Notes: generated from the letters alone by a model not told the origin. A stretch of 44,178 nt of DNA from a virus (IMGVR_UViG_3300045988_014135), one strand, 5' to 3'. Shown: positions 2,628 through 37,255, counted from the stretch's first letter. Translations and numbers: made by a program.

Positions 2628-2878
2628 GTTTCCCCTTTCTCGATAAGTAAAGCCCCGCCTTAAAGCGGGGCGCTAGTCCTTATCATTTAAACATAGAAAC
2701 GGCGTAATCTCAGTAAACCAGTTACTTTTTACACAAGCAATAGAGTATGGCCCTTCCGAACGCGTCAGCGTAACTACACTCAGGACTTACGTCCCGCTCC
2801 GTTACCTGCCCGCGCCGCGGTCGCTTGCTCATACTTCACAAGCTCAGGTGGAGCTTATCATATTTTCAGTGAAAAGTC

Positions 2879-2894
2879 AACTATTCGAATAGTT
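2879..2894. repeat. perfect 16-bp palindrome AACTATTCGAATAGTT
   Basis: Read directly; lies in the 375-bp intergenic region upstream of promoter 2947..2975; half-sites match the AATAG/CTATT promoter dyad. Confidence 0.8.
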
Positions 2895-2946
2895 TATTCC
2901 AACGTTTACAATTGAGTGGAATAACTGGAATACGTAAATAAATAGT

Positions 2947-2975
2947 TTGCGCGCACCAACATAATAGGGTACTAT
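2947..2975 (+). promoter_or_regulatory. sigma70-type promoter TTGCGC-N17-TACTAT with dyad AATAGGGTACTATT
   Basis: -35 2947-2952, -10 2970-2975, 17-bp spacer; dyad 2963..2976; AGGAG RBS and ATG at 3003 follow. Confidence 0.6.
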
Positions 2976-3002
2976 TCAGTTAACTTAAACAGGAGATGAT
3001 AA

Positions 3003-14299: not shown

Positions 14300-14330
14300 A
14301 TCCTGTCTCTCCTCTCGTTTGTGTAAATGA

Positions 14331-14359
14331 ATAGTAGCCTATTCTATCTTAGTGTGCAA
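14331..14359 (-). promoter_or_regulatory. promoter TTGCAC-N17-TACTAT with dyad GAATAG-N4-CTATTC
   Basis: Minus-strand -35 at 14359-14354, -10 at 14336-14331; 16-bp perfect palindrome 14329..14344. Confidence 0.6.
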
Positions 14360-14651: not shown

Positions 14652-14849
14652 CTATTGACCTGTTACACCACCTGTTACACCACCTGTTACACCACCTGTT
14701 ACACCACCTGTTACACCAGCACGGTATTGCACACCAGCTTTCCACGCCCGCCACGCGAGACGCGTCTTAACGTTCAGGTACCCTTTCTTTGAACCTTTGT
14801 TAACCGGCAGACCCTCGACTACAGCCCACCGTTCAAATGCTTCTCTCAT
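14652..14849 (-). CDS. small protein with C-terminal (GVTG)5 repeat
   Basis: 65 aa; C-terminus encoded by five perfect 12-bp tandem repeats. Confidence 0.45.
   Translation of the reverse strand: MREAFERWAVVEGLPVNKGSKKGYLNVKTRLAWRAWKAGVQYRAGVTGGVTGGVTGGVTGGVTGQ
14659..14718. repeat. tandem repeat, 12 bp x 5 perfect copies (CCTGTTACACCA)
   Basis: Counted directly; in-frame within ORF 14652..14849. Confidence 0.95.
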
Positions 14850-15692: not shown

Positions 15693-15880
15693 TTCGCCCC
15701 TTTGAATTTAAAATTGTTGCCGATGAGTTCCATATCCTGCGCGTATAAAACGGTGAGATACGACCCCGTTAAAGATTCAGCAAAATAGATATTATTTTCT
15801 TTGTGAAATGCGAATATGACCGCAAATTCTCCGGTCTCAGTAACCCGAACCAACTGACCCTTCTTAAACATAACCCTCAC
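15689..15880 (-). CDS. small hypothetical protein (first early gene)
   Basis: 63-aa ORF just downstream of promoter 15906..15934. Confidence 0.5.
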   Translation of the reverse strand: MRVMFKKGQLVRVTETGEFAVIFAFHKENNIYFAESLTGSYLTVLYAQDMELIGNNFKFKGAK

Positions 15881-15905
15881 TCCTCTGTCTCGTTTCGATA
15901 AGTGA

Positions 15906-15934
15906 ATAGTATCCTATTATGTTGGGGTGTGCAA
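15906..15934 (-). promoter_or_regulatory. early promoter TTGCAC-N17-TACTAT with dyad AATAGTATCCTATT
   Basis: About 30 bp near-identical, in inverted orientation, to the promoter at 37186..37214; dyad 15905..15918. Confidence 0.65.
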
Positions 15935-16167
15935 GAGATTAGTTACGTTGCCGTTGTGATTCTTTAGGGAAGGTTGTGCCTTTATTCTTATTACTTGGTA
16001 ACTAAAGGGCAGGCCTTAAGCCTGCCCAATAATCGTTACATTTTTACGGTTGCGAATCTACGGCACATTAAGAAACAGTAGATATTTCAGCGGGTTACTT
16101 CTTTAAATGAGATTTAGATACACTTATCCTTAAACCCCAAGGCAAGCATCTCAGTTGTCTGGGAGGG

Positions 16168-16199
16168 GTTGACGAATCCCTCGGGGAGGGTTCGTCAAC
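16168..16199. repeat. long inverted repeat (14-bp stem, 3-nt loop, one bulge)
   Basis: GTTGACGAATCCCTC-GGG-GAGGGTTCGTCAAC; no flanking T-run on either strand; in divergent intergenic hub 15881..16353. Confidence 0.8.
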
Positions 16200-16292
16200 T
16201 CCGTAATATATACAAGTCCCAAAACCATTATACAAACATGTGTCAAGAACTTTCAATAACTTTTTTGTAAAGATTAAATATAGCAGGGATTG

Positions 16293-16321
16293 GTTGCTTT
16301 TACATCCCCGCTATCCTATAC
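16293..16321 (+). promoter_or_regulatory. promoter TTGCTT-N17-TATACT for the rightward operon
   Basis: -35 16293-16298, -10 16316-16321, then AGGAG RBS and ATG 16354. Confidence 0.5.
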
Positions 16322-16353
16322 TCAGCTCCACCAAACAAACAGGAGATATAAAA

Positions 16354-16536
16354 ATGCAACATTACATGACCCAGAATGAAGTAGCTGAGCGTATTGGGGT
16401 GACACGCCAGACAATTAATAACTGGTTGCGCAGTGGTAAATTCCCTGACTGCTGTATTAAAGTTATGGGTCGCCGTTTACCAGGAACATTTGACCGTAAT
16501 AAAGTTGAAGCGTGGATTAAGGAGAATGTGAAATGA
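16354..16536 (+). CDS. AlpA/Xis-like HTH DNA-binding protein
   Basis: MTQNEVAERIGVTRQTINNWLRSGKFP...RNKVEAWI pattern; start at ATG 16354 after AGGAG. Confidence 0.6.
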   Translation: MQHYMTQNEVAERIGVTRQTINNWLRSGKFPDCCIKVMGRRLPGTFDRNKVEAWIKENVK

Positions 16537-16892: not shown

Positions 16893-17021
16893 ATGACGAA
16901 GTTAATAGTTCCACAGTTGCGCCGCCAGAAACACGGCGCTGATTTCTTCGCACCGGTAAAGATGAACCGCGCAATGCGTCGTATGCAGGAAGCCTTAGAA
17001 CGCGCGGAGAAAAAGAAATGA
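16893..17021 (+). CDS. small hypothetical protein
   Basis: 42 aa from internal ATG 16893; stop overlaps primase start. Confidence 0.35.
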   Translation: MTKLIVPQLRRQKHGADFFAPVKMNRAMRRMQEALERAEKKK

Positions 17022-19225
17022 ATATTGTTTTTGCAACGCTGCGTAACACTTTCGATAAAAACCCGGTAGCCCGTGAAATGCCACTGGAGCAGTTTGTAGA
17101 GTATGTCTGCGATACATCGAAGCGCCTGTCCGTAGACCCGTCATGGACTAAGGAAGAGTACGACGCGGCCAAGATTAAGCAGAAAGCTATTGCGCCGGTT
17201 GGCGGTCGCCGTAAGAACGCGATTCTGGAAGACAGTGTGGTTAAGTTCGATTTCGACCATCTAAACCGTACCCAGTACCGCGACCTCACCCGCAAATTCA
17301 AGAACGCGCCGTTCTTCAATATTCTGCACACAACGGCGTCGCACCAGCACGCGTGTAAAAACGGTGACTACGCTTTCCGCGTTCTTGTACCGGCCCGCAC
17401 GCCGTTTAACTCTAACGACGCGTGGATGGTGCAACGTGCTATTTGTGCTGAGTTAGAAATAGACGAAGCATTGCGCGACCACTGCACAGAAGATGGCAAC
17501 CGCCTTATCTACCTGCCGCATAAAGAGTCGAAGATAACGGTTACAGAAGGGCGTGTTATCCGTGCCGAGCGGTACATCAAGAAAGCCGAAGAAATGGGGT
17601 TGCGTAAGCGTGAAGCTAAGACCCTTGCTGCCGATGAGCATGGGCTTAACGCGGATATAGCGCATTTCTGCGAAGCGGAGCTTGGCCTTGACGCTTTATC
17701 TTCCGGTCGCGGGTACGAAGTGCCTTGCCCTAACGAACACCTGCACACCGGCAAAGGCTCCACCAGCATCATGCTCGACGGTAAAGAAGTGCGCTTCGTG
17801 TGCCAGCACACAAACAACGGTGCTTGCACTGAGCTTAACCGCCGACAACATTTGGCCCTGCGTATGTGCGGCCTTCCGGACGAGCTTAACGTAGACAAGC
17901 AACCTATCAGTATTAACAGCATTCGTGCGGCTCTGCCTGATTTACCGGATGAAGAGATTGAAGAACTGCACCGCACAGAGAACGAGGAGCCTGTAACTTG
18001 TACACTGGAAGACCTTGAAGACGATGACGAGTTACCTGAACCGGTAAAGGCTGATTTCGTCGTTGAAGGGTACATGCCGTCGGATTGCATCTGGGACATC
18101 GTCGGGGAATCCGGCACATATAAATCATTCTATACGCTGGGTATGATGTACCTGAGCGCCGCAGGGTACCGGTTTGCAGGCGCTGATACACAGCGTTGCC
18201 ACCATTTCTATATTGACGGTGAGGGCGGTGCTGCCACACGCACCCGTATTGATGCACTCGCGGCTAAATACGGCGAGGAAGGTAAAGATTATGTACATGT
18301 CATCGATATGGGCGAAGTTGGCAAACTGAAAAGCCTGATTAAGCTAATGCGAGAAACTGCGGGTGGCGAACCCATCGGCATGGTCGCGTTCGATACTCTC
18401 AACCAGACACTGGCCCTGACGATTGATAAGTTCGACGAGAACAGTTCATCAACGGCAATCGGCATGGGTAAAGTTATCGCCATCCTTAAAGAAGTACGTG
18501 ACGCAACTAAAGCCGCGGTGGGCGTCGTCCACCATACACCGAAGGGCGGAAAGAAAGCCCGTGGCAGCGGGGCGCTGTATGCGGGTGTCGATGTGGAACT
18601 GACAATAGAACGTGCAACCGACCGTCAGATAAACGTATACCACTCGAAATTTAAGCACGGGCCTCAACAGAAAACGGTTGGCATGGTGCTGGAGTCCGTA
18701 CAGTTCCGTGAAGCGCCGCCGCCGAAAGAGTACCGCGCGGTTGAGTTCCTGGGCAGCACAGAGGAATACGGCACAATCGTAAACCTCGACCTGCCGGAAC
18801 CACACAAGGCGCTTGTTCTGATGCCGTGGGGCTTCGAGCCGTTCAAAACTGACGAGGAGAAAGAGCGGGAAGAAGGGTTAACTAACGAAGGTAAACAAAA
18901 AGTAAAGGAAGAAGTTAAACGCGGCAGGGATGAAGTAAGGAAGGAGTCGATACTTTCGGCACTGGAAGACCTGCAACAGTCAGATGACACAGGTCGCGGT
19001 TTTACTCAGCAGCAGATAGTGGCCCGTTCCGGTGACTTTTCTGTGACTAACACCCATCTTGATAAAATGCTGAAAGATGGTGAACTAATGCTAGGCTGTG
19101 ATGCTAATGGCGAAGTAGTACCGAGAACGTATCGTATACCTGAAAGAATAGGGGATAGATTAAGGCCGAAGACAATATACGAACCGAATGAAATGCTAGT
19201 GGTTACTGAGGAAGATTTGGAATAG
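17018..19225 (+). CDS. replication primase/helicase (N-terminal primase-like region, C-terminal P-loop/RecA-like NTPase)
   Basis: 735 aa; NTPase block VGESGTYKSF...FYIDGEGG...MVAFDTLNQ...VVHHTPKGG resembles RepA/AAA_25-type helicases; first large gene of the replication module. Confidence 0.55.
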   Translation: MNIVFATLRNTFDKNPVAREMPLEQFVEYVCDTSKRLSVDPSWTKEEYDAAKIKQKAIAPVGGRRKNAILEDSVVKFDFDHLNRTQYRDLTRKFKNAPFFNILHTTASHQHACKNGDYAFRVLVPARTPFNSNDAWMVQRAICAELEIDEALRDHCTEDGNRLIYLPHKESKITVTEGRVIRAERYIKKAEEMGLRKREAKTLAADEHGLNADIAHFCEAELGLDALSSGRGYEVPCPNEHLHTGKGSTSIMLDGKEVRFVCQHTNNGACTELNRRQHLALRMCGLPDELNVDKQPISINSIRAALPDLPDEEIEELHRTENEEPVTCTLEDLEDDDELPEPVKADFVVEGYMPSDCIWDIVGESGTYKSFYTLGMMYLSAAGYRFAGADTQRCHHFYIDGEGGAATRTRIDALAAKYGEEGKDYVHVIDMGEVGKLKSLIKLMRETAGGEPIGMVAFDTLNQTLALTIDKFDENSSSTAIGMGKVIAILKEVRDATKAAVGVVHHTPKGGKKARGSGALYAGVDVELTIERATDRQINVYHSKFKHGPQQKTVGMVLESVQFREAPPPKEYRAVEFLGSTEEYGTIVNLDLPEPHKALVLMPWGFEPFKTDEEKEREEGLTNEGKQKVKEEVKRGRDEVRKESILSALEDLQQSDDTGRGFTQQQIVARSGDFSVTNTHLDKMLKDGELMLGCDANGEVVPRTYRIPERIGDRLRPKTIYEPNEMLVVTEEDLE

Positions 19226-19253
19226 GTAAAAAGAAAGGGGCGTTAAGCCCCTT
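19226..19253 (-). terminator. intrinsic terminator after the XRE gene
   Basis: GGGG/CCCC stem with 7-nt loop, U-rich tail on minus strand. Confidence 0.55.
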
Positions 19254-19458
19254 CACCGAACGCCAGCCACTTGGCGTCTACTTCCAGCACTTCCGCCAGT
19301 TTAAACAGCGTCGCCGGGCGGACGTCCTGAGTCACCCCAAGCGCAAGCTGGTTAATAGCGCCCTGGGAAACGCCCGCCAGAACAGCCAGACGGCGCTGGG
19401 AGATGCCGAGTTCTTTACGGCGTTGTTCTACACGGATACCTAGTTCAGATGGTTGCAT
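19243..19458 (-). CDS. XRE-family (Cro/CI-type) HTH transcriptional regulator
   Basis: 71 aa; LGISQRRLAVLAGVSQGAINQLALG helix-turn-helix; AAGGAG RBS; divergent from 19583 gene. Confidence 0.7.
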   Translation of the reverse strand: MQPSELGIRVEQRRKELGISQRRLAVLAGVSQGAINQLALGVTQDVRPATLFKLAEVLEVDAKWLAFGEGA

Positions 19459-19489
19459 GTCAATTACTCCTTAGTCAGTTGATATGTGA

Positions 19490-19518
19490 ATAGTACCATA
19501 TTAATTATTTTAGAAAAG
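19490..19518 (-). promoter_or_regulatory. promoter of the XRE regulator gene with degenerate dyad
   Basis: Minus-strand -10 TACTAT at 19495-19490; dyad 19489..19502 has one half-site mismatch (AATAT); weak -35. Confidence 0.5.
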
Positions 19519-19522
19519 CCCA

Positions 19523-19551
19523 TTGACAAGTGAATAGTTCGCTATTATAGT
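19523..19551 (+). promoter_or_regulatory. promoter TTGACA-N17-TATAGT with dyad AATAGTTCGCTATT
   Basis: -35 19523-19528, -10 19546-19551; dyad 19533..19546 inside the spacer. Confidence 0.65.
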
Positions 19552-21641: not shown

Positions 21642-21670
21642 TTGACACCTGAATAGTTAGCTATTATATT
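21642..21670 (+). promoter_or_regulatory. promoter TTGACA-N17-TATATT with dyad AATAGTTAGCTATT
   Basis: -35 21642-21647, -10 21665-21670; dyad 21652..21665. Confidence 0.65.
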
Positions 21671-37185: not shown

Positions 37186-37214
37186 TTGCGCACCCCAACA
37201 TAATAGGATACTAT
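37186..37214 (+). promoter_or_regulatory. promoter TTGCGC-N17-TACTAT with dyad AATAGGATACTATT
   Basis: -35 37186-37191, -10 37209-37214; dyad 37202..37215; near-identical to early promoter 15906..15934. Confidence 0.65.
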
Positions 37215-37255
37215 TCACTTACACCAACAATGTTAACTCAAACAGGAGCTACACC

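Follow-up and report, generated by a model that had tools for sequence, protein, structure and literature searches.

What does the largest non-coding stretch of a phage genome do, and what is the role of the long inverted repeat within it? The DNA analysed here (the window) is a viral sequence of 44,178 nucleotides (nt), IMGVR_UViG_3300045988_014135, and the locus in question is a 473-nt gap at 15881-16353 between a leftward operon of small open reading frames (ORFs) and the rightward replication operon. An earlier reading made from the sequence alone (the sequence-only reading) had described the gap as the largest non-coding stretch between the two operons, with promoters for both directions, a GC hairpin at about 16005..16028 and an inverted repeat with a 14-bp stem at 16168..16199, and had taken it as a candidate replication origin or regulatory switch. 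We find that the gap is a mosaic of independently exchanged modules. We propose, as a composite model that we put at somewhat under an even chance, that this hub joins a leftward promoter (P_x) for a leader RNA containing the long repeat with an origin candidate at a second, GC-rich hairpin (hairpin 1).

Sequence comparison placed the window among the Guernseyvirinae siphophages as a Kagunavirus-type, E. coli-type phage. Matches at the megablast level to the 900 bases around the gap were found in 276 phage records (the best 95-99% identical), which comprise E. coli K1-type phages, BASEL phages and Salmonella Jersey-like phages. The first gene of the leftward small-ORF string ends at 15880 on the minus strand, and the rightward operon begins with the ATG of a helix-turn-helix (HTH) gene at 16354, followed by the helicase-primase gene. 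In the annotated phage fBC-Eco01, which is 99% identical, the same 473-nt gap is the largest interval free of coding sequences (CDSs) in the genome, with runners-up of about 180 nt, so its description as the largest non-coding stretch is borne out. Promoters, terminators and RNAs are predictions throughout, P_E and P_R having been read by eye. The elements of the hub are as follows.

15881-16353: non-coding hub, 473 nt, between the leftward small-ORF operon and the rightward replication operon
15934..15906, minus strand: P_E, predicted sigma-70 promoter of the leftward operon, TTGCAC (15934..15929)-17-TACTAT (15911..15906)
15942-15964: invariant 23-bp box GTTACGTTGCCGTTGTGATTCTT, left boundary of the exchangeable modules, unique to the hub
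15966-16090: hairpin-1 module (left-mid module), allele a
16007-16027, minus strand: hairpin 1, GGGCAGGC-CTTAA-GCCTGCCC, 9 pairs
16078-16098: junction motif GTAGATATTTCAGCGGGTTAC
16091-16289, minus strand: alpha hairpin-2 cassette (right-mid cassette), non-coding, with its own leftward promoter, found in 21 Kagunavirus records
16165-16202, minus strand: long inverted repeat, hairpin 2 of alpha, with core 16168-16199, bulged T at 16177 and loop 16183-16185
16204-16283: most AT-rich 80-nt segment of the window, directly right of the long repeat
16256..16227, minus strand: P_x, predicted sigma-70 promoter, TTGAAA-18-TATAAT, reading leftward into the long repeat
16294-16322, plus strand: P_R, predicted promoter of the replication operon, TTGCTT-17-TATACT, back to back with P_x

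About 390 records of relatives were compared, and the gap was aligned from 40 IMG/VR and GenBank relatives. Its length stays at 467-504 nt in E. coli-type relatives despite the replacement of sequence, except in two that have a 150-nt insertion. The gap of Salmonella phages, with an extra hairpin, measures about 590 nt. The first 85 nt, containing P_E and the 23-bp box, are common to E. coli-type relatives. The left-mid module occurs as three unrelated alleles, a (that of the window), b and c, and the right-mid cassette as at least six, among them alpha (that of the window), beta with its sub-types, gamma, delta and epsilon; the segment next to P_R varies together with the HTH gene. Reassortment is seen among the modules: beta, beta', gamma and delta all accompany allele b, for example, and at least two beta sub-types accompany c. 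A degenerate form of the junction motif (TAGATATTTAGGYGGGA-TTAC) is common to a, b and c. The 23-bp box is near-identical in E. coli-type relatives with alleles a, b or c, with single-base variants in a few loci, and the variant of Salmonella Jerseyviruses has one T more and differs at its 3' end. A metagenome scan with a 16-base degenerate pattern of the box returned at least 120 loci, mostly unrelated and only four of them useful, the pattern being too unspecific.

It is architecture rather than sequence that is kept in the hub. A GC hairpin occupies one and the same place in all three left-mid alleles, with stems GGGCAGGC/GCCTGCCC in a, GGGTGGGC/GCCCACCC in b and GGTGCC/GGCACC in c. A strong hairpin lies in every right-mid allele, some 250-345 nt from the left edge of the gap, and the alleles other than alpha likewise carry a leftward promoter, of the TTGAC(A/T) type, that stands back to back with P_R. 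The gamma sequences have three different stems in one slot between conserved flanks. In epsilon, one pair of hairpin 2 appears as T-A, G-C and A·C, the last of which is G·U on the minus strand, and these changes point to structural constraint on hairpin 2.

The long repeat of the window (GTTGACGAA(T)CCCTC-GGG-GAGGGTTCGTCAAC) has a 14-pair core with one bulged T and reaches 17 pairs when extended through one G·T pair. When both strands of the whole window were folded in sliding segments of 44 nt, it was the most stable local hairpin of the 44 kb (-28.2 kcal/mol versus -22.5 kcal/mol for the next), and the 236-nt core of the gap folded better than shuffled sequences on both strands (z = -3.8, -4.7). 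The sequence-only reading had thus located the stem correctly, and its remark that the repeat lacks a U-tract and is unlikely to be a terminator holds: there is no T-run on either strand, and the terminator scan makes no call. The long repeat is not an intrinsic terminator.

In a promoter scan of 1.1 kb around the gap, P_x, with 11 of 12 consensus matches, was the sole near-consensus sigma-70 site. Its hexamers are invariant in seven aligned alpha sequences, in which the spacer and flanks vary, and the long repeat would lie at about +18 to +55 of the predicted P_x transcript. P_E is 96-100% conserved in all relatives, and P_R has equivalents in other alleles (TTGATT-17-TATACT and TTGTGT-17-TATAGT). 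Predicted P_x and P_E on the minus strand and P_R on the plus strand all combine sigma-70 hexamers with a spacing of 16-18 nt and conservation in relatives, and the earlier claim of promoters for both directions agrees with these consensus predictions. Alpha is the rarest right-mid allele: of about 388 related records, 21 have it, with identities of at least 96.7%. The alpha cassette had no match in 5,426 E. coli genomes and no second copy in the window, and a mobile element or the host as its source was rejected on these grounds.

How a hairpin-2 cassette may work is best seen in the beta family. The consensus fold of 11 distinct beta sequences on the minus strand consists of a 6-pair 5' hairpin and a 15-pair long-range helix with a variable hairpin cap. 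In this fold 96.5% of the cells are paired, and both partners are changed in four of the pairs; none of 500 shuffles reached its covariation score (0.191), and slid controls stayed at or below 0.07. Two invariant and several polymorphic G·U pairs are found, which would be A·C on the opposite strand. Because the G·U pairs work on that strand only, the beta RNA would be read leftward from a promoter of the P_x type, and a promoter of that kind (TTGACT-17-TAAGCT, with a spacer ending in TGn) is invariant in the 11 sequences. A 66-nt beta' probe matched 181 records and, in beta-type phages, matched two places per record. The second place, which the window also has, lies in front of the late genes.

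2628-3002: locus 2, a second divergent intergenic region, with a minus-strand unit directly upstream of the i-spanin gene and the late operon
2880..2852, minus strand: locus-2 promoter, TTGACT-17(TGn)-TAAGCT, with an extended -10
2847..2738, minus strand: locus-2 structured RNA, 119.9 bits with the model built from the family
2671..2652, minus strand: locus-2 terminator-like hairpin, with tail TTTACTTATC

The i-spanin gene starts 24 nt beyond the locus-2 hairpin and is followed by the o-spanin, scaffold and major capsid genes. When the locus-2 paralogues were added to the beta alignment, the helix was kept and further pair types were gained (UA, CG and AU at 34-92; AU, GC and UA at 44-81). Compensatory changes and strand-specific G·U pairs, as expected of a structured RNA, are therefore present both in the beta family and in its locus-2 paralogue, and the locus-2 RNA has no Rfam family match. 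E. coli phages of the a-, b- and c-types are 95-97% identical at locus 2, versus 85-90% in the neighbouring genes, and one Salmonella Jerseyvirus is, by inspection, about 96% identical there. Two links to the hub were seen besides the RNA: hairpin 2 of delta is a 96% copy of the locus-2 terminator hairpin, and a motif common to left-mid allele c (ACGGCG-AATC-AGTAA) lies between the locus-2 RNA and its hairpin. The repeated unit of promoter, structured leader and terminator looks like a transcription-control unit, and locus 2 is a candidate late-gene control leader.

Since beta is a structured RNA on the strand read from P_x-type promoters and has a paralogue at the late operon, we favour a role at the transcript level for the long repeat of alpha as well. 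By this analogy the long repeat would probably form the main stem-loop in a non-coding leader RNA that is transcribed leftward. P_x would fire leftward, and the first 60 or so nt of the transcript would fold into the long-repeat hairpin. The RNA would run for about 200 nt to the GC hairpin at 16027..16007, which may act as a weak intrinsic terminator just upstream of P_E. The alpha cassette would then be a cis-acting structured leader, working at the RNA level as beta may do, and would set the share of P_x transcription that stops at hairpin 1 versus reading through into the leftward operon.

The same layout of promoter, structured RNA and terminator-like hairpin could also describe a free-standing small RNA (sRNA) gene, whose product of about 215 nt (16220 to about 16000) would act in trans on host or phage targets. 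On that account the many alleles would be explained because an sRNA acts in trans, in host takeover, anti-defence or competition between phages. The hypervariable, cassette-like replacement of alleles at a fixed locus and the covariation of the beta-family RNA fit such a gene, and the minus strand at 15999-16083 has a sub-threshold Rfam likeness to Hrs12, an RNA ending in a terminator (E = 0.28). Against it, the Rfam 15 covariance models gave no match at the gathering score in the whole window; the permissive matches (Hrs12, AS-pc01, a plant miRNA) were set aside as meaningless, the best of them, Hrs12, scoring 22.6 bits versus a gathering score of 70. Moreover, the U-tract of hairpin 1 is weak in a and missing in b and c, which would leave many alleles without a defined 3' end, and the locus-2 unit directly precedes the spanin gene and shares its orientation, which fits a cis-acting leader better. 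We regard a trans-acting sRNA as quite unlikely.

If the long repeat belongs to a leader RNA, which part of the hub could serve as an origin? The sequence-only reading had given the GC hairpin at about 16005..16028, and it is found at 16007-16027 as hairpin 1, the fifth hairpin of the window by stability (-21.9 kcal/mol). The allele-a form looks like a terminator when read on the minus strand, where its tail is TTTAGTTACC (also given as UUUAGUUACC). Its stem shows a compensatory change from C-G to T-A in allele a, and the loops are 4-5 nt; with these variants, and with the different GC stems of a, b and c, hairpin 1 is conserved as a structure. Other variants fit one per strand (A·C in locus L006, G·T in L076) and are uninformative for strand assignment. 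The conservation of the allele-a module, about 95% between E. coli and Salmonella phages, extends well outside the stem. What singles this module out is its association with one domain of the replication protein.

16354-16536, plus strand: HTH_17 (AlpA/excisionase-like) small DNA-binding protein, first gene of the rightward operon (Pfam HTH_17, E = 1.6e-8)
17018-19225, plus strand: helicase-primase, 735 amino acids (aa), with a Pfam AAA_25 RepA-like core (PHROG 3228)
18872-19165, plus strand: variable C-terminal segment of the helicase-primase, about residues 619-716 (about 95 aa), with alleles CTD-a, CTD-b and CTD-c (CTD, C-terminal domain)

The helicase-primase is itself a mosaic. Its N-terminal alleles N1 and N2 are about 13-27% identical, its core alleles C1 and C2 about 34% identical, and a conserved acidic 19-aa tail (PKTIYEPNEMLVVTEEDLE) ends the protein in all combinations. 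The N domain has no Pfam match, the primase label coming from annotation, and a search of PDB sequences with the helicase-primase gave no match. The left-mid alleles of the hub follow the CTD alleles closely. The 20 GenBank records with allele c are exactly the 20 with helicase C2/CTD-c, no close relative of C2 having been found outside these 20 phages. All 32 records with allele b are within the 34 with CTD-b, and a-type phages match only the first 891 of the 1065 bases of the CTD-b query. Among the IMG/VR loci, the hairpin-1 allele is accompanied by the matching CTD in 14/14 cases for b, 6/6 for c and 8/10 for a. The window (a) and phiEc4 (b) have helicase cores that are 100% identical and differ in both the C-terminal segment and the left-mid allele.

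Three features of the region argue against simple linkage as the source of such pairing. The DNA between the hairpin-1 module and the CTD reassorts, including the right-mid cassette, the HTH gene and the N (primase) domain. For the 700 nt directly left of P_E, taken as a control, no association whatever with the left-mid allele was seen. In a-, b- and c-types alike, the backbone that begins just downstream of the helicase gene has about 89-91% identity with the window, and the three types are therefore not clades. Because the alleles of hairpin 1 co-vary with a CTD some 3 kb away across reassorting DNA, we consider the hairpin-1 module the best candidate for the origin recognition site of the helicase-primase. 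Co-variation of a cis element with the DNA-binding domain of its initiator is a general mark of an origin, and the hairpin-1 module shows it in counts that are uncorrected for ancestry. The CTD would bind hairpin-1 DNA and replication would start at the hub, so that the module would double as origin and as possible terminator.

The nature of the variable segment is compatible with such a role. Its AlphaFold model (mean predicted local distance difference test score, pLDDT, 72) has the order helix-strand-helix-helix-strand-strand, and the best Foldseek matches are mostly winged-helix DNA-binding domains (Sso10a, the Rio2 winged helix, H1/H5, PefI, MarR), with E of about 0.2 or more. The homologue search with the C-terminal 132 aa yielded six fragments, and the model was built from an alignment of six sequences. 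An AT-rich, easily melted segment next to a recognition element is likewise common to origins, and 16204-16283, directly right of the long repeat, is such a segment (76% AT versus a mean of 49.7% for the window, standard deviation 6.4). It contains P_x and the DNA upstream of P_R, and its AT-richness is thus not specific to an origin; in the composite model, this segment and leftward transcription from P_x would be available to help the origin open.

Two side observations concern the helicase-primase gene. The acidic tail is reminiscent of the polymerase-binding tail of T7 gp4. Between the helicase-primase and XRE genes, b- and c-type phages have an extra small gene, as in phiEc4 (65 aa, L209 293-490) and in Shashou (98 aa, L210 257-553), the two being unrelated to each other; it is absent at 19226-19242 of the window, and the b- and c-type genes travel with the CTD allele. 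This gene could belong to the specificity cassette.

The origin could instead be the long repeat itself, as a stem-loop or cruciform beside the AT-rich unwinding element at which the helicase-primase assembles, in the manner of pRN1, BIP-1 or the RSF1010 ssi sites. The repeat is the top hairpin of the genome, abuts the most AT-rich 80 nt and lies about 800 bp upstream of the helicase-primase gene, and stem-loop origins are documented for primase-helicase-winged-helix proteins (PMC4234260). There is also a second, weaker pairing: N1 is present in all 21 alpha records, and in the IMG/VR loci beta' is accompanied by N1 in 8/8 and beta by N2 in 8/9 cases, the cassette type being less tightly linked to the intervening HTH allele than to that of the N domain. 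This pairing is not one-to-one, for N1 is also found with beta-family cassettes in 20 c-type and two b-type records. The repeat is absent from about 95% of relatives, which have unrelated sequences instead; the beta equivalent behaves as RNA on the transcribed strand, and its paralogue at the late operon is invariant with respect to the replication-protein alleles. The clean covariation of specificity involves hairpin 1, not hairpin 2. We therefore hold the long repeat unlikely to be the origin. The proposal of an origin or regulatory switch thus gains some support for both functions, with the origin signal belonging to the hairpin-1 module rather than to the repeat.

The hairpins could also be nothing but insulators or elements of RNA stability and processing (bidirectional terminators, RNase III sites, 5' stabilisers), with the allele associations being due to linkage. 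Hairpin 1 is terminator-like on the minus strand, delta carries the copy of the locus-2 terminator hairpin, the annotators of fBC-Eco01 marked a terminator here, and a 17-pair stem could be an RNase III substrate. These points are met by the missing U-tract of the long repeat, by the 125-nt hairpin-1 module, whose conservation of about 95% beyond the stem is more than an insulator needs, and by the CTD pairing, which persists across reassorting DNA with an adjacent flank that is unlinked. We judge such a restricted function improbable.

Several observations weigh against the composite model. For its RNA part, alpha is too uniform for a covariation test. The alpha hairpin shows two substitutions only in seven sequences, from G to A in the loop at 16183 and from G·T to A-T at 16167, and the latter change (16167/16200) fits pairing on the plus strand, or a DNA hairpin, rather than the minus strand. 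With a covariance model of 13 beta-family and locus-2 sequences, only locus 2 was found, and homology of alpha to these RNAs was rejected; what speaks for an RNA role of the alpha repeat is the analogy of its position. The weak U-tract of hairpin 1 in a, and its absence in b and c, make termination doubtful. For the origin part, the pairing has exceptions: loci L024 and L027 combine a with CTD-c, and VIPECOTPH05A combines a with CTD-b. The pairing counts are not corrected for shared ancestry, and the records are not phylogenetically independent. The extra small ORF of b- and c-types could be the true partner of the hairpin-1 module, and the winged-helix-like assignment of the CTD is weak at the E values, pLDDT and six sequences given above. 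DnaA boxes (TTATNCACA) with at most one mismatch number 32 in the window versus 32.9 expected, with one (16228) in the gap, and the repeat finder gave only short direct repeats at chance level in the gap, with no iterons. The cumulative GC-skew minimum at 15-16 kb is not independent evidence for an origin, because it coincides with the switch of the coding strand. In the literature searched, no transcript, footprint or replication data were found for the Guernseyvirinae, and no origin, promoter map or regulatory RNA was described for them.

Among other repeated sequences, a candidate iteron motif (AGTAACTWAGATAY) present in several alleles was not enriched (8 versus 8.6 expected in the window) and was rejected, and the only short words recurring in the gap, as judged by eye, were GTTAC and TACGG.

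A wider proposal would reach beyond this hub. The locus-2 unit (2652-2880), which hardly varies between E. coli and Salmonella phages and would gate the late operon, and the hypervariable slot next to the replication operon, with the long repeat in its alpha version, could belong to an undescribed cassette family of the Guernseyvirinae, acting as antitermination or attenuation RNAs that are factor-independent or use a novel factor, together with a swappable pair of hairpin 1 and CTD that sets origin specificity over 3 kb. We consider this wider proposal possible but rather doubtful.

Could the gap instead hide small protein genes? ORFs of 21-53 aa exist in it, some annotation pipelines call CDSs here (e.g. 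Bas74_0053/0054), and ORFs of 33 aa and 53 aa overlap the repeat. All of them start with TTG or GTG and have no Shine-Dalgarno site, and frame, strand and length differ among close relatives; the 59-aa CDS of Bas74, for instance, is split into 21 + 35 aa in the window. No ORF is common to the alleles. Small protein genes in the gap were rejected in the search as well, which found no ORF of at least 20 aa common to alleles, or with an ATG start and a Shine-Dalgarno site. We give hidden genes hardly any credence.

A probable regulator site is present in the hub, and it is not the long repeat, for which the sequence-only reading had raised this as one of two possibilities, but a different element at P_E.

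15904-15920: operator-like 17-bp palindrome GAATAGTATCCTATTAT (AATAG-N4-CTATT), overlapping the spacer and -10 of P_E
2961-2977, 14329-14345, 15904-15920, 19488-19504, 19532-19548, 21651-21667 and 37200-37216: the copies of this palindrome
19243-19458, minus strand: XRE-family repressor-like gene (Pfam HTH_3, E = 2.3e-12)

The palindrome has seven copies in the window versus 0.09 expected. Four copies stand in an arrangement of the P_E type, which recurs at 2961, 14329 and 37200 (TTGCAC or TTGCGC as -35, a 17-nt spacer and TACTAT). Two lie in the spacer of TTGACA-17-TATAGT/TATATT promoters, and the remaining copy is in front of the XRE gene; the copies at 19488 and 19532 sit between the XRE gene and the divergent rightward genes. 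The 23-bp box is absent at the six copies other than that of the hub. The XRE protein is the likely binder of the palindrome, an assignment that we infer. The authors of the fBC-Eco01 annotation had listed the palindrome as a 'phage RNA polymerase promoter'; we disfavour this label because no phage polymerase is encoded, and a repressor operator is the simpler reading. Taken together, the interpretation of the sequence-only reading is partly supported, with the repeat being allele-specific and most likely acting at the RNA level.

Two further observations touch the operator. The two palindrome copies beside the XRE gene make up, with this gene, a mini immunity-like switch; the phages concerned belong to a group regarded as strictly lytic. 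An octamer from the centre-right of the hub operator (TATCCTAT, 15910-15917) recurs at 16312-16319 in the spacer and -10 of P_R, as a half-site or by chance.

The replication module right of the gap consists of the HTH_17 gene, whose product has the PHROG label 'excisionase and transcriptional regulator', the 735-aa helicase-primase, the XRE gene, a DUF2800 nuclease, an Enc34-type single-stranded DNA-binding protein and a family-A DNA polymerase, with the XRE gene on the strand opposite to the others. Left of the gap, a small ORF on the minus strand (14652-14849) ends in five tandem GVTG repeats, encoded by a 12-nt DNA repeat; on either strand, the remaining two frames of this DNA repeat give WCNR and TTCY repeats. 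Beside hairpin 1 of allele c, at the equivalent of about 16030-16060, there is a (GAGT)n microsatellite whose copy number differs between L004 and L007/L008, which are otherwise near-identical. Salmonella Jerseyviruses (L073-L082) have about 110 nt inserted between P_E and the box, with a hairpin GCGCTTGCC-GNRA-GGCAAGTGC. Its loops are GTGA, GTAA and GCAA, which are GNRA on the plus strand, and a G·U pair works on the plus strand only; these variants hint at a rightward transcript in Salmonella Jerseyviruses. One Salmonella phage record (L214, PV052268.1) is filed under Rountreeviridae/Minhovirus, has a Jerseyvirus-like locus 2 and hub, and is probably mislabelled in the database.

The Guernseyvirinae, which include the K1-type phages of E. 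coli and the Jersey-like phages of Salmonella, are often isolated, from many places, and serve in therapy and biocontrol. If the composite model is true, they would gain a concrete origin candidate with specificity alleles, useful for engineering and for predicting cross-replication of co-infecting phages. The operators would define a repressor regulon of seven promoters, and a conserved leader RNA before the late genes would offer a new handle on late timing in a sigma-70-dependent lytic siphovirus. The pairing of alleles across reassorting DNA is a clean natural experiment on the co-adaptation of a cis site and a protein domain in mosaic genomes.

How do these elements compare with known systems? 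The late unit of phage lambda consists of the promoter PR', a leader that yields the 194-nt 6S RNA, the terminator tR' and antitermination by Q, and the put RNAs of HK022 are cis-acting stem-loop leaders that make RNA polymerase resistant to terminators. Locus 2 and the hub resemble them in having a constitutive-looking sigma-70 promoter, a structured leader of about 200 nt and a terminator-like hairpin before an operon, and in that structure rather than sequence is conserved between cassettes. They differ in that no Q, N or Nun homologue was identified in this phage, no sequence or covariance-model likeness to any Rfam family was found, and the hub unit is followed by a second, operator-controlled promoter. 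Unlike put, the alpha cassette has a single long hairpin instead of two stem-loops, and termination and antitermination are here predicted. The palindrome recalls the operator sets of Cro and CI, as it overlaps core promoter elements at seven sites, two of them by an XRE (HTH_3) gene; unlike those sets, it belongs to a phage group regarded as strictly lytic, its copies are spread over early, replication and other operons, and its binder is putative.

For the origin, the closest parallels are replication proteins that recognise DNA through a C-terminal winged helix. The alpha protein of satellite phage P4 (with ori/crr) binds the repeats of its ori in this way, ORF904 of the archaeal plasmid pRN1 (prim/pol, helicase and winged helix) has a stem-loop origin, and similar stem-loops adjoin homologous phage replication genes, for example in Bordetella phage BIP-1 (PMC4234260, PMC2777425). 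In oriV of the IncQ plasmid RSF1010, the RepA helicase and the RepB' primase act on the ssiA and ssiB hairpins (PMC4234260). Like the P4, pRN1 and BIP-1 proteins, the helicase-primase of the window would combine in one polypeptide an annotated primase region, a hexameric-helicase core and a C-terminal domain modelled as winged-helix-like, and a non-coding region with stem-loops adjoins the replication operon. The operon opens with a small HTH protein, as in pRN1 (orf56), and specificity may reside in the C-terminal domain, as in P4. Unlike P4 and pRN1, the helicase core is RepA/DnaB-like (AAA_25, of the SF4 type) and not SF3; there are no iterons in the gap as in P4, and the candidate site lies upstream of the operon rather than downstream of the gene as in pRN1. 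The helicase is of the RepA type, as in RSF1010 (the Shashou annotators reported an HHpred match to RepA, 1NLF), and two separate hairpins stand in an AT-rich non-coding region in both. Here the hairpins, instead of being adjacent, are separated by about 140-160 bp (about 175 nt between centres) and have no common motif; neither iterons nor an equivalent of the iteron-binding RepC are present.

The pairing itself has its parallel in the lambdoid phages, in which iterons are matched to the N-terminal domain of the O protein and the ori lies inside the initiator gene, so that the two are physically linked. In the Guernseyvirinae the partners are 2-3 kb apart with reassorting DNA between them, and the exceptions are few. 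In both groups, a cis module and a domain of the replication protein are swapped together among mosaic relatives.

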